A stretch of 37,809 nt of DNA from Hyalangium sp. (GCF_045802625.1 NZ_JBJMQP010000096.1:1-37809), one strand, 5' to 3'; positions 8,030 to 37,809 are shown, counted from the stretch's first letter. Numbers and translations are program-made. The notes: generated by a model from the sequence alone, not told the origin.

Positions 8030-8031
8030 GG

Positions 8032-9021: not shown

Positions 9022-9636
9022 GTGGCCAGGAAAAAGTTCATCGCCGTCGCGGGTAACATCGGCGCCGGCAAGACAGAGCTCACTTCGTTCCTCTGCCGCA
9101 AGTACGGGCTGACGCCGTACTTCGAGCCGAATGATCAGAACCCCTACCTGGCCGACTTCTACAAGGACATGAAGAAGTGGGCCTTCCGCTCACAGATCTT
9201 CTTCCTGACCCACAAGTTCCGGCTGCACCGGGAGATGGAGCGCCAGGCCGGCACGGTGCTGCAGGACCGCACCATCTACGAGGACGCGGAGATCTTCGCC
9301 AAGAACCTGCACCGCCAGCGCTTCATCGACCGGCGGGACTGGCAGATGTACCGGGAGCTGTACGAGACGATCTCGCAGGTGCTGACCCCACCGGACCTGA
9401 TGATCTACCTGCGCTGCCCGGTGCAGACGCTCAAGGAGCGCATCCGCCTGCGCGGCCGCTCCATGGAGAAGGACATCCCCACGCTCTACCTCAAGCGCCT
9501 CAACGCCCTGTATGAGGAATGGTTCAGTAACTACAAGATGTCCCCTGTGCTGGTTCTCCCGACGGACAAGCTGGACTACCTGACCAACCTGGTGGATCGC
9601 GTGGATCTGTTCCGCCAGATCGAGAAGCACCTGTGA
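9022..9636 (+). CDS. deoxynucleoside kinase (dAK/dGK/dCK family)
   Basis: P-loop VAGNIGAGKT occurs 5 aa after the GTG 9022 start; SD AGGGG. dNK-family blocks (ERS-like, RxxY, ...). ATG 8959 would add 21 W/G/P-rich residues, so it is less likely. Confidence 0.75.
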   Translation: MARKKFIAVAGNIGAGKTELTSFLCRKYGLTPYFEPNDQNPYLADFYKDMKKWAFRSQIFFLTHKFRLHREMERQAGTVLQDRTIYEDAEIFAKNLHRQRFIDRRDWQMYRELYETISQVLTPPDLMIYLRCPVQTLKERIRLRGRSMEKDIPTLYLKRLNALYEEWFSNYKMSPVLVLPTDKLDYLTNLVDRVDLFRQIEKHL

Positions 9637-10808: not shown

Positions 10809-10820
10809 GCTGCGCGCCCC

Positions 10821-16273: not shown

Positions 16274-16326
16274 GGGTCTCCTCGAGCTTGTCGGCCTGGA
16301 CGAAGGTGCGCACGCGCGTGCCAGGG

Positions 16327-17298: not shown

Positions 17299-18609
17299 TC
17301 AGCCAACTCGTTGATCGCTCTGCGCGCTCGTGTCTTCGGGGCCAGGAGAGGCGCTGCGCAGCGTGGGAAGGAAAGTCCGCGCCAGGCCGGCGAACGCGTG
17401 GAGCAGCCGCTTCTCTCCGCGCCGCAGCAGGAGGCAGGTGCGCGCGTTGCGCGAGAGCTCCGCATCCCGGAGGAGCTGCTCGTCCTCCTCCAGCGTCGTC
17501 TCGAAGCCCGCGAGCCGCGCCTCGCAGAGCTCACCGAGCGTACGGAGGACCCGCTCCTCGTTGTCCACGCTCAAGGGCTCAATGACGCCCAGGCCCCCGC
17601 TGGCGTTGGCAGCGGAGGTGATGCTGGCGAGTTCCTCCTCGTTCGCATGGGCCACACGGAGGAAGGAGAACATCGCCGCGGTCGTTGCGTGATCGTAATA
17701 GAGGGGCACCTCGAAGCGGCGCAGCGCGGTGGGGCTGGACAGCCCCAGGAGCTCCCGCTTGACGAGCGCCAAGGGATCACTTTCGGGAATGCCCAGATGG
17801 AGCAACAGCTCATCCTGAGGGTTGTCCTCGGGCACGAAGCCGTAGTTGAGCAGGAAGCGGAAGTTGGACTTGACTCCGTAGCTGATGTGGAATTCCTCGC
17901 CTGCGGACACGGCCTCTCGCGCCACCAACACGAAGGCCGTCTCGTCCGCGGAGGGTCCCCACAGGCCATGGGGAGACTGCCGGTGGTTGAGCATGTCCGC
18001 CAGCGGCACGAAGCACCGGACGAGCTTTCCGCCCAGCTTCATGCCGAAGGTGCGGCTGACGAGCACGAGCTGCGCCCAGAGGAACGCGTCAGGAGTGAAG
18101 CGCGAGAATCCAGGAACACGCTCGCACAGGAAGGCATACTCGCCCAGCAGCAGCGCCCTCCATCTCGCGACCTCCCCCAGCATGGCGGAGCCCTTCAAGA
18201 AAGAGAGGTCGTGCTCGTCGAAGAAGAGGGGCAGGTGAGGGAAGGCGGCCGGCAAGGGATCGAGATAAGGCTTCCAGCAGGAGTTCTCTCGCGAGCGTTC
18301 CTGGAGGAGGAAGGCGGCCAGGCACGACTCCTCGCTCGCGGAAGGGGCATGAGCCGCGATACGGCGGCCGATGTCGGAGGCGCTGGCGACGTCGAACGTC
18401 AACAGGCACCCCCGTGGCACTCGGAGCACCTCCTCGCCCGGAGCAATATCGGCCCGGGCAAAGACGCCGCGCTCGCCGCCCTCCAAGTAGTCGATTCGCA
18501 GTTTGGGGAAGGAGGCTCCTGCCTGTTCAAGCCATTCCAGCGAGAAGGGCTCGTGCGCCGGATGACTGTCCTTTGGGGTACTTGGGTCTGCCTGAAAGTC
18601 GGTGCTCAT
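17299..18609 (-). CDS. SET-domain protein lysine methyltransferase (Rubisco-LSMT/SETD3-like)
   Basis: SET signatures VPLADMLNH and GEEFHISYG, post-SET LLNYGFVPEDNP, and a helical C-terminal substrate-binding-like domain. ATG 18609 is preferred over TTG 18675. Confidence 0.8.
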   Translation of the reverse strand: MSTDFQADPSTPKDSHPAHEPFSLEWLEQAGASFPKLRIDYLEGGERGVFARADIAPGEEVLRVPRGCLLTFDVASASDIGRRIAAHAPSASEESCLAAFLLQERSRENSCWKPYLDPLPAAFPHLPLFFDEHDLSFLKGSAMLGEVARWRALLLGEYAFLCERVPGFSRFTPDAFLWAQLVLVSRTFGMKLGGKLVRCFVPLADMLNHRQSPHGLWGPSADETAFVLVAREAVSAGEEFHISYGVKSNFRFLLNYGFVPEDNPQDELLLHLGIPESDPLALVKRELLGLSSPTALRRFEVPLYYDHATTAAMFSFLRVAHANEEELASITSAANASGGLGVIEPLSVDNEERVLRTLGELCEARLAGFETTLEEDEQLLRDAELSRNARTCLLLRRGEKRLLHAFAGLARTFLPTLRSASPGPEDTSAQSDQRVG

Positions 18610-18811
18610 TGGCTCCGCCGTGCGGCGTGGGTGCGCCAGGAAAGACGTGGCAGCGGAGGTGGTTGTGATTTCCAAGGCTCAGCGAGGCAGGTCCGTGGTG
18701 AAGCTCCAGAGCAGCGAGCCAGGAGGAGTGCGCTCACCCGCCTGTCAGCCAGAGCCCTCGTCCGCTCTCCTGGAGCTCACATCCCTGAAGGATGAGAGCC
18801 TTCTGCATTCC

Positions 18812-19381
18812 ATGCGAGTGCGCACCTGTGCCTGGAGGCACTGCCGGCGTGTCTTCTTCCTCTGCGCGCGCTGCAACCGGGGCAACCTGTACTGCTCGCG
18901 GAGCTGCGCGCAGAGGGCCCGGCGGGTGAGCCTGAGGGCCGCGGGGCAGCGCTACCAGCGCAGCCGCAGGGGCCGCTTCAAGCACGCGGCCCGTCAGGCC
19001 AGCTACCGGCAGCGGCGGAGGGCGCTGCAGAAAGTGACGCATCCCTCTACGCAGGAGCCGCCGACTCTCGGCAATGTGGTCTCTCCGACGGAGAACACGA
19101 AGCACACCCTCATACCGCTCTCCGCCGGGCGAGAACATGCAACGAAGCCTCAGGAGTTCGGGAGTGAACAGGCGGGGGCCGCTGCTCGAGCCACCCGGCA
19201 GGGCGCCTCGGCGGGCCTGTCCGGCCGCCTCATGGGTGCGTCTGGTGGCGAGGAAGGAGCGCGGGCCACCACCTCCCTGGAAAGCCCCCGGCCCGAGTGG
19301 CAGTGCATTCGCTGTCAGCGCTCGCTGAGCGCCCTGCGCCAGACCCTCCTGGCGGTGGCGCTCCCCTCAGACAGGGCCTAG
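18812..19381 (+). CDS. hypothetical Cys- and Arg-rich zinc-ribbon-like basic protein
   Basis: MRVRTCAWRHCRRVFFLCARCNRGNLYCSRSCAQRARR... carries C-x4-C, C-x2-C and C-x3-C, followed by an R/Q-rich tail and a C-terminal CIRC. GC3 is very high in the first 70 codons. Divergent from the SET operon. Confidence 0.45.
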   Translation: MRVRTCAWRHCRRVFFLCARCNRGNLYCSRSCAQRARRVSLRAAGQRYQRSRRGRFKHAARQASYRQRRRALQKVTHPSTQEPPTLGNVVSPTENTKHTLIPLSAGREHATKPQEFGSEQAGAAARATRQGASAGLSGRLMGASGGEEGARATTSLESPRPEWQCIRCQRSLSALRQTLLAVALPSDRA

Positions 19382-19479: not shown

Positions 19480-19560
19480 GATAGGGATTGAAATGTCTTC
19501 AGACGTTTGAGTGTGCCAGGTTGTGAATATTTCGTTTGAGTTTAAAGGCTTTTCACAAAC
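19480..19560 (+). promoter_or_regulatory. AT-rich putative promoter region of the ECF sigma gene, with two direct CGTTTGAGT repeats
   Basis: Local GC is far below the 70% background. Copies of CGTTTGAGT lie at 19504-19512 and 19533-19541, 29 bp apart. Confidence 0.3.
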
Positions 19561-19605
19561 AAAGGGCTGGTCCGTCTCCAGGGGGCACTTTCCGGCACAG
19601 GACCC

Positions 19606-20145
19606 GTGAAATCTCCCTCGAGCCCCTCTTCTTTTTGGCAGGTCTGGTTGCAGCACAAAGACCATTTGCATCAACAGAGCCTTCGTCTGATGGGAGGGAG
19701 TGAGCCCGATGCGGACGACGCGCTGAACACCGCCATGCTTCGCGCCTTGCAGCGGTTCTCTTCCTCGAGTGGAGAGATCCACAACGAGAAGGCCTGGCTG
19801 AGCCGGATCCTCTACAACGTCTGCATGGACCTTCACCGCGAGCGCCGGCGCCGGGTCGACCCGGAGGAGCTGCTCGAGGAGGCGGAGATCTCGTGGGGCG
19901 CGCCTCTGGAGGACTCACCGGATGAGGTGCTGCTCCAGCGCGAGCGGGCCGAGGAGATCCACGGCTGCATCGAGGCGCTGCCCCTCAACCTGCGCAAGCC
20001 CTTCACGATGCGCTTCCTGCAGGACATGTCCTATGCGGACATTGCCCTGCACCTGCAGCTGACCAACTGCAACGTGAGGAAGCGCATCCAGCTTGCCTAC
20101 GGCATCCTCCGCGTCACGCTGGCGGAGGTGCTCCTCGCGCGCTGA
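19606..20145 (+). CDS. ECF-type RNA polymerase sigma-70 factor
   Basis: Region 2 (DALNTAMLRALQRF, ILYNVCMDLHRERRR) and region 4 HTH (MSYADIALHLQLTNCNVRKRIQLAYGILR) are present. GTG start. GC is lower than in neighbouring genes. Confidence 0.85.
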   Translation: MKSPSSPSSFWQVWLQHKDHLHQQSLRLMGGSEPDADDALNTAMLRALQRFSSSSGEIHNEKAWLSRILYNVCMDLHRERRRRVDPEELLEEAEISWGAPLEDSPDEVLLQRERAEEIHGCIEALPLNLRKPFTMRFLQDMSYADIALHLQLTNCNVRKRIQLAYGILRVTLAEVLLAR

Positions 20146-23708: not shown

Positions 23709-23760
23709 CTTTCCTCGTTGCTGGGAGATCCGCGCCTGAAGACGGAGCAGCCCGCCGGTT

Positions 23761-23796
23761 TGTGAATCCGCCGGTGCGCGCCTCCACCGATTCACA
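23761..23796. promoter_or_regulatory. inverted repeat TGTGAATC-N20-GATTCACA in the phaB/patatin divergent promoter region
   Basis: Half-sites at 23761-23768 and 23789-23796. Confidence 0.25.
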
Positions 23797-23933
23797 GCCA
23801 GGTGGATCCAGCCGTCCCTCTGCTTGCTGTCCCGTGGAGAGGAGTCCTTGGAGGGTAGTGGTTGGGAGATGCCATCCCCCTCTCCGCGGGGCGGCACGAC
23901 ACGCGCACCGCGCTCACCCGTCAGAGGATGCAC

Positions 23934-25579: not shown

Positions 25580-27277
25580 TCAGCTCTGCTTCGCGCCCGC
25601 GCGGGCCAACGCCTCGCGGCCTCCTGCCAGATAGAGCTGCTCCCATTGCAGGAGTTGCGTGGGAGTCACCCCCAGCTTTTGAGCGGACTCCAGCCGGCGC
25701 GCGGCCAGCTCCAGCACCGCACGCTCGAGCTCCTCGTGGCCCTGGGGCTTGCTCGGAGGAGTAGGGGCCGGTGGCGGCGCCGTCAGGGAGAGCAGCCCCA
25801 AGGTGGACGGGAGGGTGCTGGCCGGCGCCGGCTGTGCCAGCGGCAGCCGCACCGCGGGATCCCCAAGGAGGATGTAGCCGCCCAGATCCTGGCGGAGCAT
25901 CCACAGGTGGGCCCGCTGCAGCGGATCCACTGGTGAGGGCCGCCCGGCGCCCCGGGCCTCCTCTTCCTGATCATACAGCGTGGTCAGCTCGAGGTTGGCC
26001 TGGTGGCCCCCCCGCAGCAGCCACCCCAGGCCCACTCCGGCGCGGCGTCCCCGCGCGAACTGTTGCAGCGGCTCCAGGAAGCGGGAGGTCTTGCCGCGGC
26101 GGCTGTCGCGATCCTGGAAGCCATACGTCCAGGCCAGGTCCACGTGGCCGAAGACCGCCAGCGGCCCGTTCGGGTTGGCCAGCGCGGCCTGGGGCAGCGC
26201 GGCGACGAAGGGCCGCTCTCCGGGCTGCGGGAGCGAGGAGGTGATGGAGTCGAGCCTCCCGCTGAACTGCCCCCCTGCCTGGAGCTGCCGCAGCCAATGC
26301 TGGAACGCGCTCCGCGACGGAGTGCCCGCGCCGAAGCAGGCGAAGAGGAACCAGATGCCGCCCGGCAGGAAGGGCCGGCTGGCCAGGGAGGCGCCGTCCA
26401 GGTGTAGTCCTTCCCCCAGGTTCATCGCGCCCTGGAGCGCGAGCTTCTCGTCCGTGCTGCGCCAGCCGGCGCGCGGGCTGCCGAGCCCGTGGCTCATGCT
26501 GAAGAGGATCCCAGGCCGTGGCTGTGATGCCTGCTCGAGCAGCTCGGTCACACCGCCCTTTCCGGGCCCCCCGAGCTCTAGCAGCTCCCGCATGGGGAAT
26601 CTGCCCAGCTCACGGGCCTGCTGGGCGGCGACGAGGCCTGGCGCCACCAGCGCCTGGTAGCCCGTGGAGGTCGCCGCGGTGCCGTCATGGACCGTGAAGA
26701 AGAGCGCGCGTGCCTGCTCCTCGGTGGAGGGCTCGCGCTCCCAGCGGAGCACCTTCGCCACGTAGGACTCGTAGTCCTGCTCGCGCCGGAAGGCCAGCCG
26801 CCCGACGAAAGCACTGCTGGCCGCGCACTGCTGCAGCTCGAAGGGCACCTGGTCGAAGTCCCCGAGGAACAACAGGTAGCGCGGCCGATCCGCCACCGGC
26901 ACCGACTCGTCATCGAGCACGGTGCGCACCCAGCGGGAGAAGTGCTCCAGGCTCCGGGCCTCCGCGGCCAGCCCTGGCTTCACCCGGTAGATGCGGACAG
27001 GGTGACCGCCCTGATCCTCCTGCCGCCGCCGGCGCAGGGGCTCGATGAGGGCGAGCAGCCGGTCGCCTTCGGGCCCCTCGGGAGCGACGAGGCCCCAGCG
27101 CTGCGCGGGCAGTGAGTTGGGATCCTCGCCATCATCCCAGAGGTGGCTCTCCTCCCGGGCCTCCTGGGACTCGCTGGGAGGGGCCTGCGCGGCGGCTGCC
27201 GCTGGCACCCCTTGGGGGGTTACGGGTTCGTGGGAATCAGCGTGGACAAGTAACAGCTCCAGGTTCTCCGTGCTCAA
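25580..27277 (-). CDS. gingipain-like (peptidase C25, clan CD) cysteine peptidase with no signal peptide and a C-terminal HTH
   Basis: C25 blocks YLLFLGDFDQVPF, catalytic His ILFSMSHGLGS, catalytic Cys IWFLFACFGAGTP, and GGYILLGDPAVRLPL. After a Pro-rich linker the C-terminus reads LELAARRLESAQKLGVTPTQLLQWEQLYLAGGREALA, which resembles the IS3 OrfA HTH. TTG start at 27277. Confidence 0.7.
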   Translation of the reverse strand: MSTENLELLLVHADSHEPVTPQGVPAAAAAQAPPSESQEAREESHLWDDGEDPNSLPAQRWGLVAPEGPEGDRLLALIEPLRRRRQEDQGGHPVRIYRVKPGLAAEARSLEHFSRWVRTVLDDESVPVADRPRYLLFLGDFDQVPFELQQCAASSAFVGRLAFRREQDYESYVAKVLRWEREPSTEEQARALFFTVHDGTAATSTGYQALVAPGLVAAQQARELGRFPMRELLELGGPGKGGVTELLEQASQPRPGILFSMSHGLGSPRAGWRSTDEKLALQGAMNLGEGLHLDGASLASRPFLPGGIWFLFACFGAGTPSRSAFQHWLRQLQAGGQFSGRLDSITSSLPQPGERPFVAALPQAALANPNGPLAVFGHVDLAWTYGFQDRDSRRGKTSRFLEPLQQFARGRRAGVGLGWLLRGGHQANLELTTLYDQEEEARGAGRPSPVDPLQRAHLWMLRQDLGGYILLGDPAVRLPLAQPAPASTLPSTLGLLSLTAPPPAPTPPSKPQGHEELERAVLELAARRLESAQKLGVTPTQLLQWEQLYLAGGREALARAGAKQS

Positions 27278-27451
27278 TGCGTGTCCTCCGGCAAGGAGCG
27301 CCCAAGAGGTGGGCGCTTGCCAGGAGGACGCGGCAGGCCCTGGCCGTGTGAGTCATTGGAGGAGACATGGGTGAGACGCGCGAGCCCGGGTGATGGTGAA
27401 CTCCGCTCGCTGCCCTCATGGTGGGCAGCCGCGGTCACCGCCAGGCTTTGT

Positions 27452-27469
27452 GTGTGATCGCATTCACAC
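27452..27469. promoter_or_regulatory. CRP/FNR-type palindrome GTGTGA-tcgcat-TCACAC
   Basis: Perfect TGTGA-N6-TCACA. It lies in the divergent intergenic region, 73 bp upstream of ATG 27542. Confidence 0.4.
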
Positions 27470-27541
27470 CGTGGCGCTGTTTGGCGTCCTGGGAGCGTAG
27501 CACCCGGCACATGCCGGCAACTCAACCCCTAGGAGGAAGTC

Positions 27542-28459: not shown

Positions 28460-29461
28460 TCACTTCGCCTGGAAGAGCTTGCGCTTCTCGAAGGCGTCCT
28501 TCACCGCGTCCGAGACCTGGTGCCCCCGCGCGGCCATCAGCCCCGCGACATCCACGGGCTTGGACACCGCGCAGACACCGGTGGGGTTGATCGCCGTCAT
28601 GTACCCATCCCCGCAGTCCGCGCCGTGAGCCTTCAGGATCGTGCCGAACTGCAGCTCCGCCATCAGCCGGAGCAGGTGGTGGGTCCGCTCGACCTCGAGC
28701 TCGGGCGACTCGCCGCGCACCTGATGATCCCAGTGGATGAAGCGCAGCGTGCCAACCGGCGTGTAGTTCCAGTGCATCAAGGCCTGGAAGCGCTTGCCGA
28801 TGTCAGGCACCTGGCGGAGCAGCTCGAGGAGCGATGTCGAGGGGGGCAGGTGCGGGACGGCGTCGTCCTGGAACTCGAAGCGCTGGTGGATGTTGTGGAA
28901 CGGGTAGGCCTTGGCGAACCCCACGTCACCACACTTGGGGGCGGCGAAGGTGAAGATGCCCGCGGGCTCGATGCCCTCGAGGCGGGCGAACCGCATGGCC
29001 GCGAGCGTGGCCATGGCCCCGCCCTTGTTGTGGCCCGTGAGGTAGAGGGGGAGCGTCTTGTCCCCAGCCTGGCGCAGCGCCCGGACCTGCGGCAGGAGCC
29101 GGGACCAGAGCGCATCGAGCGAGCCCCAGAACCCCGCGTGCAGCGCCCCGGGGATGCCAGGCACGGAGATGAGCTCGGCGTGGAAGTCGTTCATCCAGTC
29201 GAGCGCGGGGGCCATGCCTCGCTCCGTGGGAGGCAGGGTGCCGCGGAACGCGACGACCACGGCGTTGAGCGCGCTGCTGCGGCCCACCAGGCACGCGTCG
29301 ACGTGGGGCTTCCCGGCGCCTCCGACGATGGCGACAGGGGCGATGAGTCCGGAGGCGCTGTCATAGGGAGGATAGGAGGAGGAGAACGAGCCATTGGATT
29401 GGACGGCATAGCTGTAGACACTGGCACAGAGCATCTGGCCTTCGAGGGTGGGTGCGGGCAT
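28460..29461 (-). CDS. lipase class 3 / DUF2974 (Mbeg1-like) alpha/beta-hydrolase homolog with Asn replacing the nucleophilic Ser
   Basis: LYLTGHNKGGAMATLAA corresponds to G-H-S-[LK]-G-G in lipase_3/DUF2974. ATG 29461 with SD AGGAAG. No signal peptide. Confidence 0.7.
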   Translation of the reverse strand: MPAPTLEGQMLCASVYSYAVQSNGSFSSSYPPYDSASGLIAPVAIVGGAGKPHVDACLVGRSSALNAVVVAFRGTLPPTERGMAPALDWMNDFHAELISVPGIPGALHAGFWGSLDALWSRLLPQVRALRQAGDKTLPLYLTGHNKGGAMATLAAMRFARLEGIEPAGIFTFAAPKCGDVGFAKAYPFHNIHQRFEFQDDAVPHLPPSTSLLELLRQVPDIGKRFQALMHWNYTPVGTLRFIHWDHQVRGESPELEVERTHHLLRLMAELQFGTILKAHGADCGDGYMTAINPTGVCAVSKPVDVAGLMAARGHQVSDAVKDAFEKRKLFQAK

Positions 29462-29627
29462 GAGCGCTTCCTGTTTGGGGTTGAGATTGGGGGGAGCCCA
29501 ATCGCAGGGGAAGACGCCGCGGGAATGCACCTCGTGAAAGAGCGAGCCGCTTCACTGCGGGAGCCGGCCGCACGTCCTTCAGCACAGCCACCCATTGAAG
29601 GGGGCCTTTGCGCTGGAGAAGCCGCGG

Positions 29628-30350
29628 ATGCCATTGTCGACCAAGCCCGAATACCCTCACGACTACAACCCAGACAACACTTGGAAGAGCCTCGTACCCA
29701 GGGGTGGCAATCCCGCCGCCTGGTTCAAAGGGGCCGCTGGCATGGCCAGCCTCATCCAGGAGCGTCAGGGGGTGGGCTTCACCGAGGGCCCCATCTACCG
29801 GGTGCCCCTGGGCCGCTGTGTAGCGTGCCTGGTCCAGTTCCCGGTCGCCGCGCTGACGATCGAGAGCATCATCCATTACGACACCTACGCCGGGAAGGCG
29901 CTCGGGCCGCAGGATCTGGTGAACATGCACAACGACACGTCCAACCTGACGTTCCTGTGCAAGGGCTGCCACGCCAGCAAGGATCTCGAGCCGAGTACGC
30001 TCTATGACTGGATCATGGAGACCGTGCGGCTCGAGGAGCACGGGACGCGGCTGAGCCAGGTCCAGGTGGTGAGGCAGGCCTGGCTGGACATGGAGCGGGT
30101 CGCGGCGCAGCAGTTCCTCCACATGGACCTGACGGGCCTGCAGCACGTGCTGGCCGACCCCAACCTCAGCCCGAGATCCCAGGCGGCCGCGCGAATGGCT
30201 CGCATCAGCCTGGCGGGCCAGAAGGCGCTCAATGACGCGCACTTCCTGTTCGACTTTCATCTGGCGAAGGATGTGGAGCTGCTGGCCCACCAGCTCGAGG
30301 CCGAGGCCAAGCTCCACTTGCAGCCCGGTAAGTCCAAGCCCGTTCCGTAA
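29628..30350 (+). CDS. HNH endonuclease-domain protein
   Basis: GRCVAC...IIHYD...VNMHNDTSNLTFLCKGCHASKD fits the C-x2-C/H-N-H core, followed by a helical C-terminal domain. ATG 29628; the track gives TTG 29595. Confidence 0.7.
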   Translation: MPLSTKPEYPHDYNPDNTWKSLVPRGGNPAAWFKGAAGMASLIQERQGVGFTEGPIYRVPLGRCVACLVQFPVAALTIESIIHYDTYAGKALGPQDLVNMHNDTSNLTFLCKGCHASKDLEPSTLYDWIMETVRLEEHGTRLSQVQVVRQAWLDMERVAAQQFLHMDLTGLQHVLADPNLSPRSQAAARMARISLAGQKALNDAHFLFDFHLAKDVELLAHQLEAEAKLHLQPGKSKPVP

Positions 30351-30367: not shown

Positions 30368-30396
30368 GGCCCTCCTCGCCGCGATGGAGGAGGGCC
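30368..30396. terminator. perfect 10-bp hairpin between the convergent HNH and GH19 genes
   Basis: ggccctcctc-gccgcgatg-gaggagggcc. Confidence 0.4.
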
Positions 30397-30406: not shown

Positions 30407-31006
30407 TCAGCGGCTCAGCAGCTTCAGCGCCTGCTGGTAGTACGCATCACGAGACGACTTGCCATTGTAGCCGCCGTTGATGCGGTAGGTGATTGCGTCG
30501 AGGTTGCCCTCGTCCGCGTACTTGTTGAGGTGATGGCTGGTCCAAAACCAGACGGCCGTGCGGAACCCCACCTCGGGCTCGGCGGCGCGGTTGGGGTTGT
30601 TCTCCAGATCGATGTCCAGTGCGGCCCCCGCGGCGCGGTAGTTGGCGCGGCCGGTGATCTGGATCGGACCGCGGCCCTTGTAGCGCACGCCGTCGCCCGG
30701 TTGGACGTTGCCCAGATCCCGCCGCCCCTCGTAGGCCTTCCCCGAGGCCAGCTCCTCGAAGTAGCGGAGCTCTCCGCTCTCGTGAGCGAGCTGCGCCAGG
30801 AACGCCGCCCGCCGGCGAGGGGTGTCGATCCCTCCCTCGGCCATGGCCGCATTCAGGTGGGGCAGCAGCGCGATGGCGTGCGCCTCGGGCAGCTTGCGCA
30901 TGAGGGCGCGGAGCTGCTCCAGCGTCACTCCTTGCGAAGTGCTCGTCGCGGGTGCTGCGGGGGGGATAGGCGTGTCGGGGGAGGGGGAGGAACCGGAGGA
31001 TGACAT
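30407..31006 (-). CDS. glycoside hydrolase family 19 (chitinase/endolysin-like) peptidoglycan hydrolase, with no signal peptide
   Basis: FLAQLAHESGELRYFEE carries both catalytic Glu, and YKGRGPIQITGRANY is present. A Pro/Ser linker lies N-terminal. ATG 31006; an alternative GTG 31111 would leave only 6 nt after the upstream gene. Confidence 0.8.
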   Translation of the reverse strand: MSSSGSSPSPDTPIPPAAPATSTSQGVTLEQLRALMRKLPEAHAIALLPHLNAAMAEGGIDTPRRRAAFLAQLAHESGELRYFEELASGKAYEGRRDLGNVQPGDGVRYKGRGPIQITGRANYRAAGAALDIDLENNPNRAAEPEVGFRTAVWFWTSHHLNKYADEGNLDAITYRINGGYNGKSSRDAYYQQALKLLSR

Positions 31007-31117
31007 GGGGAGCTCTCGGGCTTGGCGGCCACAGCAGAAGGTGGACCTGATGGATGCCTGGAAGACGCCTGGACCAGAGCGCTTGTGACTGGCGGACGGG
31101 GCCTGGAGCACTCTGCC

Positions 31118-34100
31118 TCAAGGCCGCGGGGCGGGCGGAGTCCGATCATGCGTCTGTTCGCACGAGGCGGACGCCTGCCGCGCCGGAGCTGGGAGATCGC
31201 CTAGATAATTCTGGCGCTCCCAGGCCGTCAGACAGGCCGAGCTGGCCGCCTGGAGCCGCTCCTGGAGTGAGTCCATGGGGAGGGGCTCGCGCGGGCGCCA
31301 GAGGCGGGCGCTCCCATCCGTGGAGCCGGTGAGGAGCTGCACGTCTTCCCCTTGGGGGCTGAACGCGGCCGATGTCACCTGGCCCTCGTGCGAGGAGAGG
31401 ACGAGGTGGGGCTCCCGGGTATCGCTGGCGAGCCAGAGGCGGACGCGCGCATCCGCGCAGGCGGTGACGAACCGGCTTCCATCCGGGCTCCAGGCGGCCC
31501 AGAGCACCGGGGCTTCGTGCCGGGCGACGAATTGGACCCCGTGGACCTTGCCCCCCTCCACGCGCCAGATGCGTGCCGTGCCATCCTGTGAGGCGGTGAG
31601 CACCCGCGTCGGATCCTGGGGATGGAAGGCCGCCGAGAGGACCCAGTCGTCGTGCCCGTAGAGCGTGGCGAGCAGGTTCCCCTCCGTGCTCCAGATGCGT
31701 GCCGTGCCATCCTGGGAGGCGGTGAGCACCCGGCGGCCATCCGCGCTGAAGGACACGGAGCGGACCTGGGCGCCATGTCCCTCGAGCAGGATGGCACGCC
31801 GCGGGTCGTCCACACGGACGATCCGGGTGGTGCTGGCGCCCGAGGCGAGCGCCACCCACTGTCCGTCGGGGCTGAACGCGGCGCCGAAGAGGGGCTCCTG
31901 CTGGGACACCAGGATGCGGCCCGCCGCGTGCCCATCCGAGGGCCAGATGCGCGCCGTTCCGTCCCGGGAGGCTGTCAGCAGCCACTTCCCATCCTGGCTG
32001 AAGGCCACCGAGAGCACATCCTGGGTGTGCCCCTGCAGCACGCGCATGTGCCGGCCGTCATCCGACCAGAGGCGCACCGCGCCATCCTGCGAGGCCGTGG
32101 CCACCCGCGCTCCGTCAGGGCTGAAGGCAACGGACCAGACGAAGCTGCCCTGCCCGGGCAGTGGGCGCGAGTCCCTCGGCTCGTCCATTCTCCAGACCCT
32201 CGCGGTGGCGTCGACGGAGCCCGTCACCATCTGCTTCCCATCCGGACCGAAGGCACCCCACAGGAGGGTGGAGCGGTGCCCTCGCAGGATCCGCGGGGGC
32301 TCGGAGTCGTGGACGGACCAGAGCCGCGCGGTGGTGTCCGAGGAGACGGTGAGGATCCGGTCTCCCAGCGGGCCGCTGAAGGTGGCCATGCGGACGGCAC
32401 CCTGGTGTCCGCGCAGCACCCGGGGCTCGCCGCTCCCGTCCGCCCTCCAGAGCCGGGCGGTGTTGTCCACGGAGGCCGTCACCACCCACTGCCCATCCGG
32501 GCTGAAGCGCGCGGTGGTGAGCTCCCCCTGGTGCCCCTTCAACAGCACGGGTCCTCCCAAGCCGCTGACAGGCCAGATGCGGGCGATGCCATCCCGCGCG
32601 ACCGTCAGCACGCGGGTCCCCTCCGGATCGAACAGGGCGGAGGTGACGGTGGCGGCATGAGGCAGTTCGCGGGGACTGGCTGGCGCATCGAAGGACAGGA
32701 TGCGCGCCTTGCCATCCTGCGAGGCGGTGACCAGCCTCTTCCCATCCGGGCTGAAGGCCACGGTGGAGACGGGGCCCTGATGACGCAGGACGAGCGGCTC
32801 GGCCACGGTCTCGAGCGACCACACCCGCGCCATTCCATCGCGCGAGGCGGTGGCGATCTGCCGTCCATCCGGACTGAAGGCGCCCCACTGGACCACGCCG
32901 CGGTGTCTGAACTCTCGCAGGAGGTGTCCATCCGAGGTCCGCCACAGGCGCGCCGTCCCATCGTGCGAGGAGGTGAGGACCAGCGCCCCGTCTGGAGGGC
33001 TGAAGGTGGCGTGGTAGACCGGCCCCTCGTGGCCCGCCAGCACGAGGGGATCCCCCTCGCCATCGGTCCGCCAGATCCGCGCCGTACCATCTCGCGACGC
33101 CGTCACCACACGCTGCCCGTCCGGGCTGACCTCGACGTAGACCACGGCCTCCTGGTGGCCTCGCAGCACGGCGCGGCTCAGAGGTTGTTGGAGGACCTCC
33201 GAGACATCCCTGTCCCAGCCCTGGAGCTGCGACGGCTCCTGGATCTCGCGCAGCGTGAGCAGGGCCAGCGTGGGGTTCTCGTGCAGCATCGTCCGGGCCA
33301 CGCCCAGCCGGATGAGATCCCTGGCGCGCAGGGCGTACCGCTGCGCCTCCTGCCGCTCCCGCTGCTCCTGGGCCTCGTGCCGCCTGGCGTTCCAGGCCAG
33401 CCCCGCCATCGCCGCGGCAACCCCTATCGCCGCGGCGAGCAGCCCCAGCAGGCGGCGGCGGGCGGCCTGCTGCCGGGATTCGGCGCTGGCCACACTGGCG
33501 TCGATGAGCTGGAGCACGTCCGCGCCAGGATCCTCGTCGTACCGCTCCAGGACACGCTGGGAATACCCGAGCCGGCTGCCAGAGAGCAGATAGGGGGCTC
33601 CTCCATCCGCGTCTTCCCGGTGCGCCAGCCACGAGCGAGCCCAGGCTTGGAGCTCTCGGAAGTGCTGGAGGCGCTCGCGGTCCGCCAACGCCCACTCCAC
33701 GAGGGCAGGCCAGGTGCGGATCAGCGACTCGTGGGAGAGCTGCAACCACTCTTCGCCCGCCTGGCCCTCCTCGCGGATGAGGAGCCGGGCGGTGAGCAGC
33801 GCCTCGAGGACCTGCTCGAACGCGTCGCGCGCCTCCTGCGCCGTGGGGCGTACGTGCTCGAGCATCGCCCGCCTGCGCGTGCCCGGGGAGGCGCCGTGCT
33901 GGAAGTCCACCAGCTCCACCAGGAGCCTGCGCGCCTGGCGCTGCTCGGCGGGGGACAGCGCCGCGTAGAGGCGATCCGCTGCCCGCGTCAGCGCCCCGGC
34001 TACCCCACCAATGGCTGCATAGGCGCGGTGGGTGAGCTGGCCGCCGTCACGCCCCTCCCACAGCTGATCCAGCGCGTATTGCAGCAACGGCAGCGAGCCG

Positions 34101-35860
34101 GGCTCCTGTCCCACGTCCTGGAGGAGCCGATCCACCAGCCCCGGCTCGAACGTCAGCCCCACCTTGTGCGCCGGGCCCACGATGGCGGCGCGGAGCTCCT
34201 CGCCTTGAAGCTCCGTGACGAAGAGGCGGTGAGCGTCGGAATACACCACCGCGTCCAGCCGCGTCCCGGCCTCATCCACCACCAGCTCTCCGCAGCGCCC
34301 GAGATAGTCCACCCGGAGCGTGGCGAGCACGATCACCTGCCGCTCTGGATCTCGCGACAGCTCCCAGAGCGTGGCGGCCAGGGCTCGGCGTGCCTCGGGC
34401 TCCGTCAGCTGGGTGAAGAGCTCCTCGAATGGATCCACGAGCAGCAGCTGGCGCGGACAGGAGGACTGGCGAAGCTGCTGGAGCGTCTCGGTGGGCCCTT
34501 GCCCCGGGCGAAGCACCCGGACCTCCCAGTCGGAGGCCGGGAGCGCATGGAGCAGTCCGGCGAGGGCGAGCGAGGACTTGCCGCTGCCCGAGGCTCCCGC
34601 CAGCACCTGGAAGCGCGGCCGCCGCCCGTCCAGTGACTCCTGGATGCGCTGGAGGAGCTCCTGTAGGAGCCGCTCGCGCCCGAAGAAGAACCGGCGATCG
34701 GTTTTCTGGAAGGGCAGCAGGCCGCGGTAGGGCCGGATTGCCACCGGGCGTGTATCACTCCCATCCTCCGCTCGGGCGTAGAGCTGCACGGAGGCGTAAT
34801 CCAACGACGAGCTGTCGCGTGCGAGCTCGCGCCGGGCCTGTCCCATGGCCTCCTCGAGCGAGCAGGGCTGCGCCAGCAGAGAGCGGTAGAGGCTCGCGGT
34901 GAGCACTGAAGAGCCCGCGATGGACAGGGGCAGACGGGAGGCCACCACCGCCTGGATGCCCGCGCGGTGGAGCGCCTGGGCCACGCTGCCCAGGTGGTTG
35001 CCCGCCAGGCCCGCGCCGCTCTGGCACGCGGCGAGCACCACCAGCCGCAGCGTCCCCGCATGGGGCGCCAGCAGGTGGCGCAGGGTGGCGCCGTCGATGA
35101 GCTCGGGCTCGCCCCCCTCCCACGAGGCATCCCAGAGCAGGCCATAGGTCTGGCCCCGCCGGCTGCCGTGACACAGCAGGTGGAGGATGGAGATGGGTTC
35201 TCCAGGACGGGCCAGCGCCTCCCCGAGCGCCGCGAGCGAGACGTTCGGCAGGACGTCGCGGGCGGGATCAAACGGATGATCGCCCTCCTCGCAAGCCTGG
35301 CTCAGTGCGCGCAGGTGGGGCTTGTCCGGGACATGGCCTCCCGCGGCGGACCAGGCGTAGAGGATGCGCCCGCCCCGCGGTGTCCCGGCCAGAGGCGCGG
35401 CGTGCGTGTCGGGCCACTCGTAACGGATGAGGACACCGGGGAGCTCGGCCAGCGCTTGCCCGGAGGTCCCCAGCGTCAGCAGCTCCCAGGGCAGCGCGTA
35501 AAGCTCGGCCGCGGCGAAGCGGAAGGTGAGGTGCACGGGGCGCCCTTGCTCCACCGCGGCGAGGATGTCGCGTGCGTGGGCATTCCAGCCCACCCCCTCC
35601 AGAAAGGTCCGGAGCCGGTCCCCCAGGCGCTGCACCACGCTTCGGTCTGGCTGGAGCCGCTCCAGCTCCGCCAGGTCCGCCAGCAGCGGGGGCTCCCAGG
35701 AGAGCGCCGCTCGCGCATAGCTCCCATGCGCCCGGCGCAGCAGGTACTCCTGGGGCTCGAGCCGGAAGTGGAAGGGATCTCCCGCATCCTGGCCGCGCAC
35801 CAGCTCCAGGAGCAGCTCGAGCGGGGCGGCCTTTCTGATCACCGGGGAGGACATGTTCAC
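31118..35860 (-). CDS. CHAT (caspase-like) protease-STAND NTPase-TM-WD40 multidomain protein (1580 aa)
   Basis: CHAT His/Cys dyad at ISILHLLCHG and LVVLAACQSG. P-loop GASGSGKSS, Walker B LLLVDPFEE. One hydrophobic helix LLGLLAAAIGVAAAMAGLAW at aa 803-822. About 14 WD40 repeats from aa 895 to the end. The GTG start overlaps the SBP stop (GTGA); ATG 35854 is the alternative. Confidence 0.85.
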   Translation of the reverse strand: MNMSSPVIRKAAPLELLLELVRGQDAGDPFHFRLEPQEYLLRRAHGSYARAALSWEPPLLADLAELERLQPDRSVVQRLGDRLRTFLEGVGWNAHARDILAAVEQGRPVHLTFRFAAAELYALPWELLTLGTSGQALAELPGVLIRYEWPDTHAAPLAGTPRGGRILYAWSAAGGHVPDKPHLRALSQACEEGDHPFDPARDVLPNVSLAALGEALARPGEPISILHLLCHGSRRGQTYGLLWDASWEGGEPELIDGATLRHLLAPHAGTLRLVVLAACQSGAGLAGNHLGSVAQALHRAGIQAVVASRLPLSIAGSSVLTASLYRSLLAQPCSLEEAMGQARRELARDSSSLDYASVQLYARAEDGSDTRPVAIRPYRGLLPFQKTDRRFFFGRERLLQELLQRIQESLDGRRPRFQVLAGASGSGKSSLALAGLLHALPASDWEVRVLRPGQGPTETLQQLRQSSCPRQLLLVDPFEELFTQLTEPEARRALAATLWELSRDPERQVIVLATLRVDYLGRCGELVVDEAGTRLDAVVYSDAHRLFVTELQGEELRAAIVGPAHKVGLTFEPGLVDRLLQDVGQEPGSLPLLQYALDQLWEGRDGGQLTHRAYAAIGGVAGALTRAADRLYAALSPAEQRQARRLLVELVDFQHGASPGTRRRAMLEHVRPTAQEARDAFEQVLEALLTARLLIREEGQAGEEWLQLSHESLIRTWPALVEWALADRERLQHFRELQAWARSWLAHREDADGGAPYLLSGSRLGYSQRVLERYDEDPGADVLQLIDASVASAESRQQAARRRLLGLLAAAIGVAAAMAGLAWNARRHEAQEQRERQEAQRYALRARDLIRLGVARTMLHENPTLALLTLREIQEPSQLQGWDRDVSEVLQQPLSRAVLRGHQEAVVYVEVSPDGQRVVTASRDGTARIWRTDGEGDPLVLAGHEGPVYHATFSPPDGALVLTSSHDGTARLWRTSDGHLLREFRHRGVVQWGAFSPDGRQIATASRDGMARVWSLETVAEPLVLRHQGPVSTVAFSPDGKRLVTASQDGKARILSFDAPASPRELPHAATVTSALFDPEGTRVLTVARDGIARIWPVSGLGGPVLLKGHQGELTTARFSPDGQWVVTASVDNTARLWRADGSGEPRVLRGHQGAVRMATFSGPLGDRILTVSSDTTARLWSVHDSEPPRILRGHRSTLLWGAFGPDGKQMVTGSVDATARVWRMDEPRDSRPLPGQGSFVWSVAFSPDGARVATASQDGAVRLWSDDGRHMRVLQGHTQDVLSVAFSQDGKWLLTASRDGTARIWPSDGHAAGRILVSQQEPLFGAAFSPDGQWVALASGASTTRIVRVDDPRRAILLEGHGAQVRSVSFSADGRRVLTASQDGTARIWSTEGNLLATLYGHDDWVLSAAFHPQDPTRVLTASQDGTARIWRVEGGKVHGVQFVARHEAPVLWAAWSPDGSRFVTACADARVRLWLASDTREPHLVLSSHEGQVTSAAFSPQGEDVQLLTGSTDGSARLWRPREPLPMDSLQERLQAASSACLTAWERQNYLGDLPAPARQASASCEQTHDRTPPAPRP

Positions 35861-37056
35861 CGGAGCGACTTCGGCTGGACGGTCTGGCCTTCCTGGCGCA
35901 CCAGCCTGCCATCCGGGTCGTAGATGGAGCTGGCCAGCTCCAGGAAGCGGAAGGGGATCTTCATGTCGAGCCGGCGGGCCTTGCGGAAGTGGATGGCGAG
36001 ATCCGGCGGCGAGATGATGCCCACGGGGAGCCGCGACGCCGGCAGCCTGCTGTCCAGGATGCTCTGCACATAGAGCGCGCCCAGCTGCCCGGCGCTCTTG
36101 AAGGGCACGCCGATGGACATCACCGCACTGGCATCCCCCTCGCGCACCACCTCCCGCACGGAGCCGAGCACGGGGATGCCGGCGGAGAGGCGGTCAATCC
36201 TCTCCAGCTCGTCGTACACGGTCGAGGAGGTGGTGATCCAGAACAGGCTGTGCCGGGCCCCCGGGTCGATCTGGCGCATCGCGCGAGCCATTTTTGGGAG
36301 CTGCTCCGAGAGGAGTGTGCTCGCGGTGGCCTTGCCATTCACGGCCAGCTCCAGGAGCTGGAATCCGTCGCGGGCCGCCATGCGGCGCATCCCCTCCGCT
36401 TCGACCTCGACGGCGCTCTGGTTGCGCCGATCGTAGAGCACCGTCATCACCTTGAGAGGCCCCATCAGCTCCTGCAGGTAGTGGAGCTGCGCCTCCGGGG
36501 GGATGCTCAGCGAGACGAAGGCCATGTTGGACGGCCGGGTCCGCTGGGAGGCTCGCTCCTCGAAGCCAAGCCACAGCTCCGGATCCTTGCAGAGCGCCAC
36601 CACCGGCGTGGGCTGGTTGCCGAAGCGGTTGTAGAAGAACCGCGCCGCGTCCGAGCCCATGGCGATGATCAGGTCGAACTGCCCGGAGTCCGCCAGCGCC
36701 AGCATCCGCTCGTACTCGTCCCGGCTGCTGTCGAGCTTGTACAGCGTGAGCTCCACCGGGACGCCCTTGTCCCGGAAGACGGGCAACATCCCCTCGAGGA
36801 TCCAGTTGAGGCTGCTCTGGGCCACGGTGAAGAGGACGAGCACCTCGCGCGCTGGCGTGTGAGGATCGGGAGAGGACTCGGGCGAGATGCGGATCCGTCC
36901 CCGGGACGCCTCCAGCTTCCAACCCTTGCTCGCTTCGCCGGGCAGGGTGAGCCAGTGCGAGAGATCCTCGGGCTGGGCCTGGACGGGACCGGAAGCCGCC
37001 AGTGCCAGGAGCAGCCCCAGCAGCCTCCAGCTTCGCGCAGGGGAGCATTCACGCAT
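35857..37056 (-). CDS. ABC-transporter-type periplasmic substrate-binding protein (ABC_sub_bind / COG2984-like)
   Basis: Sec signal peptide MRECSPARSWRLLGLLLALAASGPVQA, then a two-lobed SBP. ATG 37056 overlaps the MFS stop by 8 nt. Confidence 0.7.
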   Translation of the reverse strand: MRECSPARSWRLLGLLLALAASGPVQAQPEDLSHWLTLPGEASKGWKLEASRGRIRISPESSPDPHTPAREVLVLFTVAQSSLNWILEGMLPVFRDKGVPVELTLYKLDSSRDEYERMLALADSGQFDLIIAMGSDAARFFYNRFGNQPTPVVALCKDPELWLGFEERASQRTRPSNMAFVSLSIPPEAQLHYLQELMGPLKVMTVLYDRRNQSAVEVEAEGMRRMAARDGFQLLELAVNGKATASTLLSEQLPKMARAMRQIDPGARHSLFWITTSSTVYDELERIDRLSAGIPVLGSVREVVREGDASAVMSIGVPFKSAGQLGALYVQSILDSRLPASRLPVGIISPPDLAIHFRKARRLDMKIPFRFLELASSIYDPDGRLVRQEGQTVQPKSLR

Positions 37057-37809
37057 GATGCACCTCGTGTCCGTGCAGGCGCCGGCTCGCCCAGGTGAAC
37101 CCGGCGCCGAGCAGGAGCGCCATGACGCCAAGCCACCCAAAGGCCTGGAACCGGTTCGGGTAGATGAGCAGCAGGGCGCTGACGAGCATGGGCCCCAGGC
37201 ACTGCCCGAGTCTGCTGATGAAGCGATGGAGGGCCAGGGACGTCCGCTCCTCTCCGCCCCCTTCCTGAGAGCGGGTGAGATGGCGCTCGAGGGGCGCGTG
37301 GATGAGTCCGTGAGACAGCCCCAGCAGCCCCAGCGCCAGGGCGCACAGCGCCTCTTCGCTCAGCCAACTCCCGAGTGCGGGCAGGGAGTCCACGAACCCG
37401 AGCGCGAGCAACCCCAGCCCAGTCCCCGCCATGCCAGCTTGGAGCAGCCTCCGCGGCCGGCCGGGCCCGCTGGGGAGCACGGTGAGCAGGTGATGGGACA
37501 GCATCACGCCCAGCGCATAGATCGCGAGCAGCTGACCGATCCGATCCAGGTCATAGCCCCTGCGCGTCAGCACCAGAGGCAACGCGAAGGAGAGGAGTCC
37601 GCTGCGGATGAGCAGGGTGGGTATTCCCACGAGCAGGGTCGCTCCGTGGAACCCTGGAGCCTTCCACGCCCGTGCCAACCCGGAGAGGGACGAAGGAGGA
37701 CGGGAGCGGCGAAGCACGGGGGGAGTGGGTCTGCTCCGAGGCGGGAGAGGAGGCAGAAGCACCAGCGCGTACGCCAGCGCAAGCAGGCCCGCGAGGCCGC
37801 TCAGCAGGA
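37049..37809 (-). CDS. MFS-type transporter, C-terminal half (5' end beyond window)
   Basis: At least 6 TM helices, with an MFS-like loop LTRRGYDLDRIGQ. The reading frame stays open to the window edge. Confidence 0.6.
   Translation of the reverse strand, partial: LLSGLAGLLALAYALVLLPPLPPRSRPTPPVLRRSRPPSSLSGLARAWKAPGFHGATLLVGIPTLLIRSGLLSFALPLVLTRRGYDLDRIGQLLAIYALGVMLSHHLLTVLPSGPGRPRRLLQAGMAGTGLGLLALGFVDSLPALGSWLSEEALCALALGLLGLSHGLIHAPLERHLTRSQEGGGEERTSLALHRFISRLGQCLGPMLVSALLLIYPNRFQAFGWLGVMALLLGAGFTWASRRLHGHEVHHA

Follow-up and report, generated by a model that had tools for sequence, protein, structure and literature searches.

A composite myxobacterial locus in which a CHAT-nSTAND1 gene with a predicted membrane anchor adjoins an MFS/substrate-binding protein gene pair, possibly within an ECF-type regulon

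Work on bacterial STAND/NLR-like proteins has dealt almost wholly with their role as sensors of phage proteins in the cytoplasm, and the STAND sensors characterised so far are cytoplasmic (PMC13581612). Bacterial STAND or NACHT proteins that bear a transmembrane (TM) helix and possibly sense periplasmic signals have already been noted, many caspase-bearing proteins carry TM helices, and there is a precedent for caspase proteins that combine a TM helix with a periplasmic binding protein (PBP) domain that is extracellular (PMC7159879). Substrate-binding proteins (SBPs) are known to stimulate TM receptors, and the solved members of the SBP family PF04392 bind Trp, Tyr or Phe (PMC10443332). Here we describe a locus in 37,809 nt of DNA from Hyalangium sp. 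(the window, on whose whole length gene positions are counted) in which the genes for a major facilitator superfamily (MFS) transporter, a PF04392 SBP, a 1580-aa CHAT-nSTAND1-WD40 protein (the giant) and a GH19 muramidase follow one another. We read this as a composite, chromosomal and vertically inherited locus: a lineage-specific operon within a regulon of the extracytoplasmic function (ECF) sigma type, with the STAND protein as a possible TM transducer and GH19 co-regulated. This reading is tentative, at somewhat under an even chance, and the locus does not appear to be a recurrent four-gene system. Its features are as follows.

37049..37809, minus strand: 3' part (252 codons) of the MFS transporter gene, truncated by the window end; frame and stop read from the sequence.
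35857..37056, minus strand: SBP, 399 aa, PF04392, with signal peptide; profile match and fold match.
31118..35860, minus strand: giant, 1580 aa, CHAT-nSTAND1-(predicted TM)-WD40, an NLR-like STAND NTPase with a caspase-like effector domain; Pfam domains and predicted structure.
34808..35533, minus strand: CHAT domain (clan CD, caspase-like), aa 110-351 of the giant; PF12770, E=1.7e-20.
33608..34732, minus strand: nSTAND1 NTPase module, aa 377-751 of the giant; PF20703, E=6.6e-94.
33395..33451, minus strand: hydrophobic segment LLGLLAAAIGVAAAMAGLA, aa 804-822 of the giant, predicted signal-anchor TM helix; Kyte-Doolittle 2.25.
31298..33178, minus strand: WD40 region, aa 895-1521 of the giant, 15 four-stranded blades and then a short helical C-terminus; Pfam and AlphaFold.
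31064..31088, minus strand: promoter-like motif TCACAA-N15-CGTC (ECF-sigma type) in the giant-GH19 spacer, 57 nt 5' of the GH19 ATG.
30407..31006, minus strand: GH19 endolysin-type muramidase, 199 aa; PF00182.
30368..30396, minus strand: GC-rich hairpin (GGCCCTCCTC ... GAGGAGGGCC), starting 11 nt past the GH19 stop.

The TGA of the MFS fragment (37049-37051) and the SBP ATG (37054-37056) produce an 8-nt overlap (ATGCGTGA), and the SBP stop (35857-35859) overlaps the GTG of the giant (35858-35860) by 4 nt (GTGA). The open reading frame (ORF) of the giant, stop codon included, ends at 31118, which leaves a 111-nt spacer before the GH19 ATG at 31006. These coordinates agree with an earlier note on this DNA, which had given overlaps of 8 and 4 nt and a gap of at most 111 nt, all on the minus strand; the span it assigned to the four genes, 31006-37809, begins at the GH19 start codon and so leaves the body of GH19 (30407-31006) outside. 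Its MFS-SBP-giant unit is sound: the three genes are co-directional with overlapping frames, and the SBP-giant stop/start overlap, as ATGA or GTGA, is kept in all seven myxobacterial loci (7/7) in which the junction is present. Identity to orthologues is 72-81% for the giant, 73-79% for the SBP and 69-77% for GH19, compared with 73-75% for the flanking patatin, 78-83% for a C25-like protein and 79% for PhaC. Because the flanks diverge as much as the cluster genes, the myxobacterial block appears to have been inherited vertically, and by reason of that inheritance its conservation counts as one evolutionary event; the SBP-giant join is nonetheless stable in its lineage. The wider window includes adk, map, rpsM/K/D, rpoA, rplQ, PhaC, SDR and patatin genes. 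With ribosomal-protein, rpoA and PhaC neighbours and a block that is syntenic across genera, the locus lies in the core chromosome and in no defence island or mobile element.

The SBP was recognised by PF04392 (40.3 bits against a cutoff of 25.9, E=3e-10), matches a protein from the metagenome-assembled genome (MAG) of a Hyalangium sp. at 100% identity, and has an N-terminal signal peptide (…LALAASGPVQA/QP) that was read from the sequence. The best fold matches of its predicted model (predicted local distance difference test, pLDDT, 69) are the PF04392 members 3LKV, 6HNI and 3LFT; a search with NCBIfam gave sub-threshold matches only, such as TolB-like and TrpX-like. The 252-aa MFS fragment, which has five hydrophobic segments, has no Pfam match of its own and was identified because it is 61% identical to the C-terminus of MFS_A, a 787-aa protein of Cystobacter fuscus. 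Since the full-length Cystobacter orthologue matches MFS_1 (E=1.5e-21), the MFS permease that had been proposed for this gene stands by way of the orthologue, but not by any Pfam match of the window fragment itself. In the orthologues, which are 773-787 aa long, the MFS core is preceded by an N-terminal extension whose TM helices enclose two loops of ~120-135 aa; Pfam found nothing significant in this extension. The extension was not called as a Cache domain; the only hints came from a separate 251-aa protein (dCache_1, E=6e-6, below the cutoff) and from MFS_B (sCache_3_2, E=0.02).

This SBP subfamily is rare, with nine matches in a large protein collection, and our sample of it comprises 12 loci from a scan of 185,579 species genomes plus three ENA contigs; an SBP alignment scan of JGI metagenome contigs found no relatives. 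Six of the 12 loci are myxobacterial (Cystobacter fuscus, a Cystobacter MAG and four Corallococcus species) and all six have MFS-SBP-giant, followed by GH19 (70-82% identity) in all four whose contig reaches far enough. A further locus in Corallococcus macrosporus has the giant and GH19 only, on a contig that starts inside the giant gene. The other six, from Alphaproteobacteria and Chloroflexota, and the three ENA contigs carry instead a module of a D-Ala-D-Ala-ligase-like ATP-grasp enzyme, an MFS protein of ~775-800 aa and the SBP.

ATP-grasp/MFS/SBP module: L003 6511-11185; L012 6362-11095; L013 5931-11083; L015 4205-9416; L016 ~6493-11077.

Directly after the SBP, the alphaproteobacterial loci have a convergent dCache-adenylate/guanylate cyclase gene, and Chloroflexota have a co-directional gene for a dCache-HAMP protein together with a ParA-like ATPase; a dCache neighbour was thus seen in every non-myxobacterial SBP locus with enough sequence. 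In the myxobacteria a divergent sister operon encodes a porin, the 251-aa Cache-like protein, a second long MFS, an ATP-grasp enzyme and a second PF04392 SBP. Genes for an ABC permease or ATPase were not found within +/-10 kb in Cystobacter or Corallococcus or in the examined parts of the window, so that the SBP is an orphan, as the earlier note had it, in the sense of lacking ABC transporter genes, but it is one consistently paired with an MFS. Because the ATP-grasp-MFS-SBP arrangement is kept in Alphaproteobacteria and Chloroflexota with no ABC genes nearby, the MFS/ATP-grasp module appears to be the primary and ancient partner of this SBP. A text search of the literature turned up no SBP-dependent MFS transporter, and the ATP-grasp/extended-MFS/PF04392 set could be a new transport or signalling module. 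In Beijerinckiaceae-like metagenome contigs the module is preceded by genes for a PALP enzyme, a luciferase-like monooxygenase, an AMP-binding enzyme, a carrier protein and a phosphopantetheinyl transferase (PPTase; L003 578-5422), a small biosynthetic set which hints at an amino-acid derivative of the cell's own making as the ligand that is transported or sensed.

In the giant, CHAT scores 74.1 bits against PF12770 (cutoff 24) over aa 110-351 and matches the PADLOC SAVED_CHAT model at E=3e-32, while nSTAND1 reaches 316 bits against PF20703 (cutoff 27.1) and covers profile positions 1-378 of 379. The CHAT dyad, His231 (HG) and Cys279, is intact, with H in 115/119 and C in 117/119 aligned family members, as are Walker A GASGSGKSS (K428) and Walker B LLLVD (D476), which are kept in 117-118/119. 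Pfam found 12 WD40 stretches, and the AlphaFold model of aa 700-1580 (pLDDT 91.3) runs from helices through a low-confidence break at the hydrophobic segment and a long helix to 60 strands, or 15 blades, with WD40 strands above a pLDDT of 90; in this model the blades would be enough for two beta-propellers. The giant thus has the tripartite STAND layout of N-terminal CHAT effector, nSTAND1 NTPase and C-terminal WD40 blades. Top PDB matches of the WD40 model are the Nostoc tandem propeller 2YMU and Apaf-1 3SFZ (TMq 0.42). Tandem Repeats Finder detected no DNA-level tandem repeats in the WD40 region, and a description of the blades as highly internally conserved, rapidly diversifying repeats was rejected on that ground. 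Relatives of the CHAT-nSTAND1 part number more than 1000 at E below 1e-10, are mostly myxobacterial and 44-51% identical, and end in WD40, TPR or short C-termini of unrecognised type; the giant is one member of a very large myxobacterial CHAT-nSTAND1 paralog family.

A single 19-mer of the giant, aa 804-822 between the NTPase and the blades, is strongly hydrophobic: its mean Kyte-Doolittle value is 2.25, and no other segment in the 1580 aa reaches 1.6. The AlphaFold model makes this segment helical, with low pLDDT and packed against no domain. Of the 120 best paralogs, 90 have a hydrophobic 19-mer at the corresponding position, although the sequence itself is not conserved, and because they carry the same anchor the putative TM helix is a trait of the CHAT-nSTAND1 family and no peculiarity of this locus. 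In 89 paralogs K+R is 5.6 on the N side of the segment and 3.3 on the C side, with N above C in 77/89 (Wilcoxon p ~1e-11, a value that overstates independence, as the 89 sequences are related). This bias fits a cytoplasmic CHAT-NTPase and a periplasmic WD40 region, that is, a predicted N-in/C-out topology. The architecture set out in the earlier note (CHAT with an intact dyad, a STAND P-loop NTPase, one putative TM helix and WD40 blades for two propellers) is borne out on each count, the TM-like anchor after the NTPase by hydrophobicity, paralogs and positive-inside bias together, and the Pfam check it had called for put PF12770, nSTAND1 PF20703 and PF04392 above their cutoffs and found the WD40 stretches.

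The promoter-like motif came solely from a cross-species alignment of the giant-GH19 spacer, in which six species share the invariant blocks TCACAA and CGTCTTCCAG.CA.CC within otherwise diverged DNA. TCACA-N15-17-CGTC occurs nine times in the window where 0.73 would be expected, a count that no shuffle reached. Eight of the nine sites are intergenic, and seven stand 29-57 nt 5' of a correctly oriented start codon, those of GH19, the divergent C25-like/orf103 pair, the divergent SDR(-PhaC)/patatin pair, a SET-domain gene and an ECF sigma gene (19606-20145). Back-to-back copies of the motif stand between the porin operon and the MFS-SBP-giant operon in Cystobacter and Corallococcus.

Motif sites in the window: 18644-18668(-), 19502-19526(-), 19553-19576(+), 23741-23765(-), 23792-23816(+).
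Further motif sites in the window: 27327-27351(-), 27464-27488(+), 31064-31088(-).
Motif sites in relative loci: L001 7572-7596(-), 7612-7636(+); equivalents in L002, L009-L011.

A two-block, promoter-like motif with an AAC-like -35 and a CGTC -10 element, with a copy before an ECF sigma gene, fits an autoregulated ECF regulon. By these sites the region looks like one ECF-sigma regulon across ~25 kb; a literature search for the motif in Myxococcus gave nothing usable. Several of the genes concerned have features of their own. The C25-like neighbour, 25580-27277(-), encodes 565 aa that are 78-83% identical between genera. Its match to Peptidase_C25, likewise of the clan CD caspase-like fold, is weak, HTH_28 matches at its C-terminus, and the gene carries the same motif; the product would be a second caspase-fold protein of the putative regulon. 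The gap between the SET and ECF sigma genes is ~930 bp in the window and 163 bp in Corallococcus macrosporus, and the longer form contains a Cys-rich ORF, 18602-19381(+), whose CxxC motifs resemble Zn fingers, as well as the motif site 19502-19526(-), which has no obvious downstream gene. The SET-domain protein, with a Rubisco-LSMT substrate-binding domain, 17299-18609(-), is one of two eukaryote-like enzymes in the window, the other being a 682-aa homologue of protein-arginine deiminase (PAD), 14321-16369(-).

The long MFS and the PF04392 SBP are the myxobacterial copy of the ATP-grasp/MFS/SBP module of three phyla, and the second module is a CHAT-nSTAND1 family member with a signal-anchor-like helix between NTPase and sensor repeats, as in most of that family. 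In an ancestor of the Cystobacter/Hyalangium/Corallococcus locus, this second module came to stand directly behind the SBP with a start/stop overlap, and it has stayed there since. From these observations we propose the following mechanism. The giant would sit in the inner membrane with CHAT and NTPase in the cytoplasm and the 15-blade WD40 region in the periplasm, taking the place of the dCache transducer next to the SBP. The ligand-loaded SBP, or the ligand itself, would be sensed by the WD40 propellers; the ligand would probably be amino-acid-like and possibly a product of the ATP-grasp enzyme moved by the MFS. NTP-dependent oligomerisation would then activate the caspase-like protease on the cytoplasmic side. 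GH19 would belong with the operon to a local regulon, along with the ECF sigma gene, SET, SDR-PhaC, patatin, the C25-like protease and orf103, and would probably be co-induced. We infer the SBP-WD40 interaction from gene position only.

A number of results weigh against the STAND protein as a transducer for this SBP. On the giant's side, we searched 84 loci of its relatives, consisting of four paralogs in complete genomes and 80 metagenome loci (711 kb; alignment of the N-terminal 800 aa), and by tblastn and SBP HMM, with both positive controls found, none of them contained the SBP, this MFS, the ATP-grasp enzyme or GH19. On the SBP's side, no CHAT-STAND or GH19 was found in the SBP loci outside Myxococcota. 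The SBP-giant link is therefore one that rests on a single evolutionary event, and with synteny across the entire +/-10 kb block, its conservation does not tell function from inheritance. The divergent sister operon already encodes the 251-aa Cache-like protein, whose dCache_1 match (E=6e-6) lies below the Pfam cutoff, and this protein could be the real transducer. The flanks of the giant's own segment have equal K+R counts, 4 and 4, with a net charge of +3 before the segment and +1 after it, and the promoter-like site of the MFS operon lies outside the window and was seen in relatives only. The co-occurrence check that had been suggested for SBP-giant pairs gave, then, a pair kept in the orthologous Cystobacter/Corallococcus/Hyalangium locus and nowhere else, neither in the 84 relative loci nor in the non-myxobacterial SBP loci, and not a recurrent system.

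The same results give the strongest alternative its standing, namely that the juxtaposition is incidental: the giant would be an autonomous conflict or defence sensor that landed behind the SBP in one ancestor, and MFS-SBP would work only with the ATP-grasp and Cache-like genes of the sister operon. We regard this as possible, if on the unlikely side. It agrees with the solitary paralogs and those beside unrelated genes, with the absence of SBP, MFS and GH19 from all 84 related loci (0/84), with a Cache-like gene already present in the sister operon, and with the MFS and the ATP-grasp enzyme being the universally conserved neighbours of the SBP. The four complete-genome paralogs have either no neighbours or unrelated ones (lipoxygenase; TIR_2-AAA_35 with a protein of ~1200-1260 aa without Pfam match). 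Two WD40 paralogs (L019 1627-11671; L021 1809-11653) stand directly behind the TIR_2-AAA_35 gene and the ~1200-1260-aa Pfam-less protein, with gaps of ~17 nt; this neighbourhood is a different, conflict-system-like context for the giant's family.

An accidental neighbour does not readily explain the 4-nt start/stop overlap kept in 7/7 loci of three genera. Nor does the giant behave as arms-race sensors do, as it diverges like its housekeeping flanks and shows no repeat hypervariability. Its place is among core chromosomal genes, next to those for ribosomal proteins, rpoA and PhaC, and in no defence island. PADLOC recognised no defence system: the giant gave domain-level hits only (SAVED_CHAT, HEAT-ARM_XIII) with no model of Avs or another system, and the SBP, GH19 and MFS gave none. 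Assignment to a known defence system of the Avs or bNACHT-like type was rejected, there being no PADLOC system and no defence island or mobile element. That the sensor is predicted to be periplasmic speaks against cytoplasmic phage-protein sensing as in antiviral STANDs, since a sensor domain in the periplasm could not see phage proteins in the cytoplasm. Of the conflict-system class to which the locus had been assigned, the protein class stands, the giant being of the described caspase-nSTAND1-repeat class, and the tests for a known defence system, by PADLOC and by location, failed.

GH19 scores 53 bits against PF00182 (cutoff 25.5), its catalytic HES...FEE and the GRGPIQITGRANY signature are intact, and E76, E84/E85 and GRGPIQ.TGR.NY are invariant in 11 GH19 sequences. 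It has no hydrophobic segment and no export signal, and no holin-like neighbour was found. Orthologues at the locus share a Ser/Pro/Lys-rich N-terminal leader of ~35 aa, which is absent in a stand-alone homologue and replaced by a hydrophobic N-terminus in a prophage homologue. The GenBank product in the MAG has 164 aa and starts at Met36; the 35 codons 5' of it (window 30899-31006) are in frame. Orthologues conserve the residues immediately preceding Met36, and translation from 31006 would put the start codon 57 nt from the promoter-like motif; for these reasons the 199-aa form is the more likely one. More than 7000 homologues exist, many fused to LysM or peptidoglycan (PG)-binding domains. 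The best phage match is the endolysin of Myxococcus phage Mx1 (OR576727; 61.6% identity over 86% of the protein), and a 74%-identical homologue is a stand-alone gene. A 72%-identical GH19 of Archangium violaceum (L022 8804-10028) lies in a prophage-like, integrase-bearing element, has a signal-arrest-release (SAR)- or signal-like hydrophobic N-terminus and overlaps small flanking ORFs; this prophage type is the likely evolutionary source of the chromosomal GH19.

A consensus scan found no terminator in the giant-GH19 spacer, a sigma-70 scan of the spacer found nothing relevant, and the hairpin after the GH19 stop is the likely end of the transcription unit. Between GH19 and orf168 lie a class-3 lipase gene, 28460-29530(-), and a 251-aa ORF without Pfam match, 29595-30350(+), neither of which had a tblastn match in Cystobacter or Corallococcus; the pair appears to be a window-specific insertion adjoining the cluster. 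With regard to transcription, GH19 would have its own predicted promoter and may also receive read-through, and because the same motif precedes the MFS-SBP-giant operon in relatives it is probably co-regulated with that operon rather than unrelated to it. The four-gene operon that had been claimed keeps its overlapping MFS, SBP and giant genes and its terminator-free path to GH19, but the spacer holds a promoter-like motif and the association does not recur in independent lineages. The earlier note had also named what would speak against it, a GH19 under an independent promoter and unrelated; the conserved motif in the spacer and the phage, prophage and stand-alone homologues go some way towards this, while the same motif before the operon in relatives goes against it.

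In its full form the earlier model had the ligand sensed through SBP and WD40, the STAND protein activated, and CHAT cleaving the leader of the signal-less GH19 to bring about lysis, as abortive infection or programmed death. We consider this model improbable. GH19 does follow the giant in every orthologous locus, without an export signal and with a leader that has no counterpart in the stand-alone homologue, and the terminator-free spacer, the hairpin behind GH19 and the one promoter type before both GH19 and the operon agree with joint expression. Against these points stand the conserved promoter-like element of GH19's own, and homologues of 62-74% identity that occur as the endolysin of a myxophage, in a prophage lysis cassette and as a stand-alone gene. 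No other CHAT-nSTAND1 family member adjoins a GH19 gene among the 84 loci, and a cytoplasmic muramidase would need a route across the inner membrane, for which no holin was found. A bolder version of our own reading, which we would call a long shot, is a ligand-gated TM "apoptosome-like" switch, in which an amino-acid-derived signal made by the ATP-grasp enzyme is transported by the long MFS, captured by the SBP and presented to WD40, whereupon the caspase-like protease fires in the cytoplasm; lying inside an ECF regulon with a signal-less GH19 muramidase, a patatin phospholipase and a C25-like protease, it would serve a lysis or differentiation programme controlled by self or kin signals. Finally, it is very unlikely that all domains of the giant are cytoplasmic, with the segment a peripheral membrane tether or buried helix and WD40 sensing a cytoplasmic protein as in Apaf-1-like or Avs-like STANDs, since the cytoplasmic location of characterised STAND sensors (PMC13581612), the Ala/Gly-rich composition of the segment, its equally charged flanks in the giant and its absence from 30/120 paralogs are outweighed by a hydrophobicity of 2.25 across 19 residues that is unique in 1580 aa, by hydrophobicity rather than sequence being kept at the same position in 75% of paralogs, by the strong positive-inside bias across the family and by a model that leaves the helix unpacked against any domain.

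Taken together, the locus and about three quarters (~3/4) of the paralog family point to STANDs with repeat sensors outside the cytoplasm. Should the coupling of SBP and giant be functional, small-molecule cues outside the cytoplasm would come within the range of NLR-type signalling, and the SBP ligand would be an experimentally tractable handle for activating a bacterial caspase-like STAND; the apoptosome-like switch, if true, would be the first NLR-type protein to read an extracytoplasmic signal via a binding protein. If the coupling is incidental, the giant would be just another protein of a very large, already known family, next to a domesticated endolysin. The ATP-grasp/extended-MFS/PF04392 module and the local ECF-type regulon may be due separate follow-up.

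Among described systems, the caspase/CHAT-STAND-repeat proteins of multicellular bacteria (PMC7159879; PMC8195603) share with the giant an N-terminal caspase-superfamily effector, a central nSTAND1 and C-terminal superstructure-forming repeats, and likewise show lineage-specific expansion in a multicellular bacterium, here with more than 1000 relatives. They differ in that the PBP is a fused domain in those papers and a separate, overlapping and translationally coupled gene here, and in that this locus is core-chromosomal, slowly evolving and tied to an MFS/ATP-grasp module. The two-gene EACC1 System 4 (Kaur 2020) similarly has a 3' gene with an N-terminal caspase domain, often with TM helices, and with C-terminal domains that vary, but the 5' gene here encodes a 399-aa PF04392 SBP with a signal peptide instead of a small single-TM EACC1 protein, and because the SBP and giant genes overlap there is no small TM gene between them; assignment to this system was rejected. 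Apaf-1 and the bacterial Apaf-1-like STANDs (PMC13581612) resemble the giant in having a tandem WD40 double propeller behind a STAND NTPase and in caspase-type output; the 15 blades fit 7+8, and Apaf-1 3SFZ has the best TM-score among the matches listed. The giant's NTPase, however, is of the nSTAND1 clade whereas that of Apaf-1 is an AP-ATPase, its caspase-like domain is fused whereas that of Apaf-1 is recruited, and a TM helix would part its NTPase from its propellers. Given that separation, the intramolecular autoinhibition of Apaf-1 between WD40 and the nucleotide-binding oligomerisation domain (NOD) could not apply as such to the giant.

GH19 phage endolysins of the Mx1 type have the catalytic Glu residues and GH19 signature of our protein at the identity given above, and their relatives are often fused to LysM or PG-binding domains; unlike them, the GH19 described here is chromosomal, lacks a holin, SAR or signal sequence, has a Ser/Pro-rich leader, and stands behind an ECF-type promoter motif common to host genes. 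In SBP-dependent signalling (LuxP-LuxQ; PruR-DcpA; SBP-stimulated chemoreceptors and kinases; PMC10443332, PMC11194511), as here, the gene for a secreted SBP adjoins that of a membrane protein with a periplasmic domain and cytoplasmic output, and the non-myxobacterial relatives of this SBP adjoin a dCache-cyclase or dCache-HAMP protein. The proposed receptor in our locus differs in being a STAND NTPase-protease with a WD40 ectodomain, of which we found no description, and the operonic link of a STAND protein to an MFS-SBP module is likewise undescribed as far as found, in one lineage. The SBP-dependent secondary transporters TRAP and TTT, finally, also couple an SBP gene tightly to a secondary-transporter gene, a pairing that here spans three phyla. 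They differ in their membrane partner, which in our case is an MFS protein with a long N-terminal extension, and in their SBP, which in our case is of the PF04392 (ABC-type) family. The ATP-grasp/extended-MFS/PF04392-SBP module, found beside dCache transducers in three phyla, may represent a new SBP-linked system of secondary transport or signalling.

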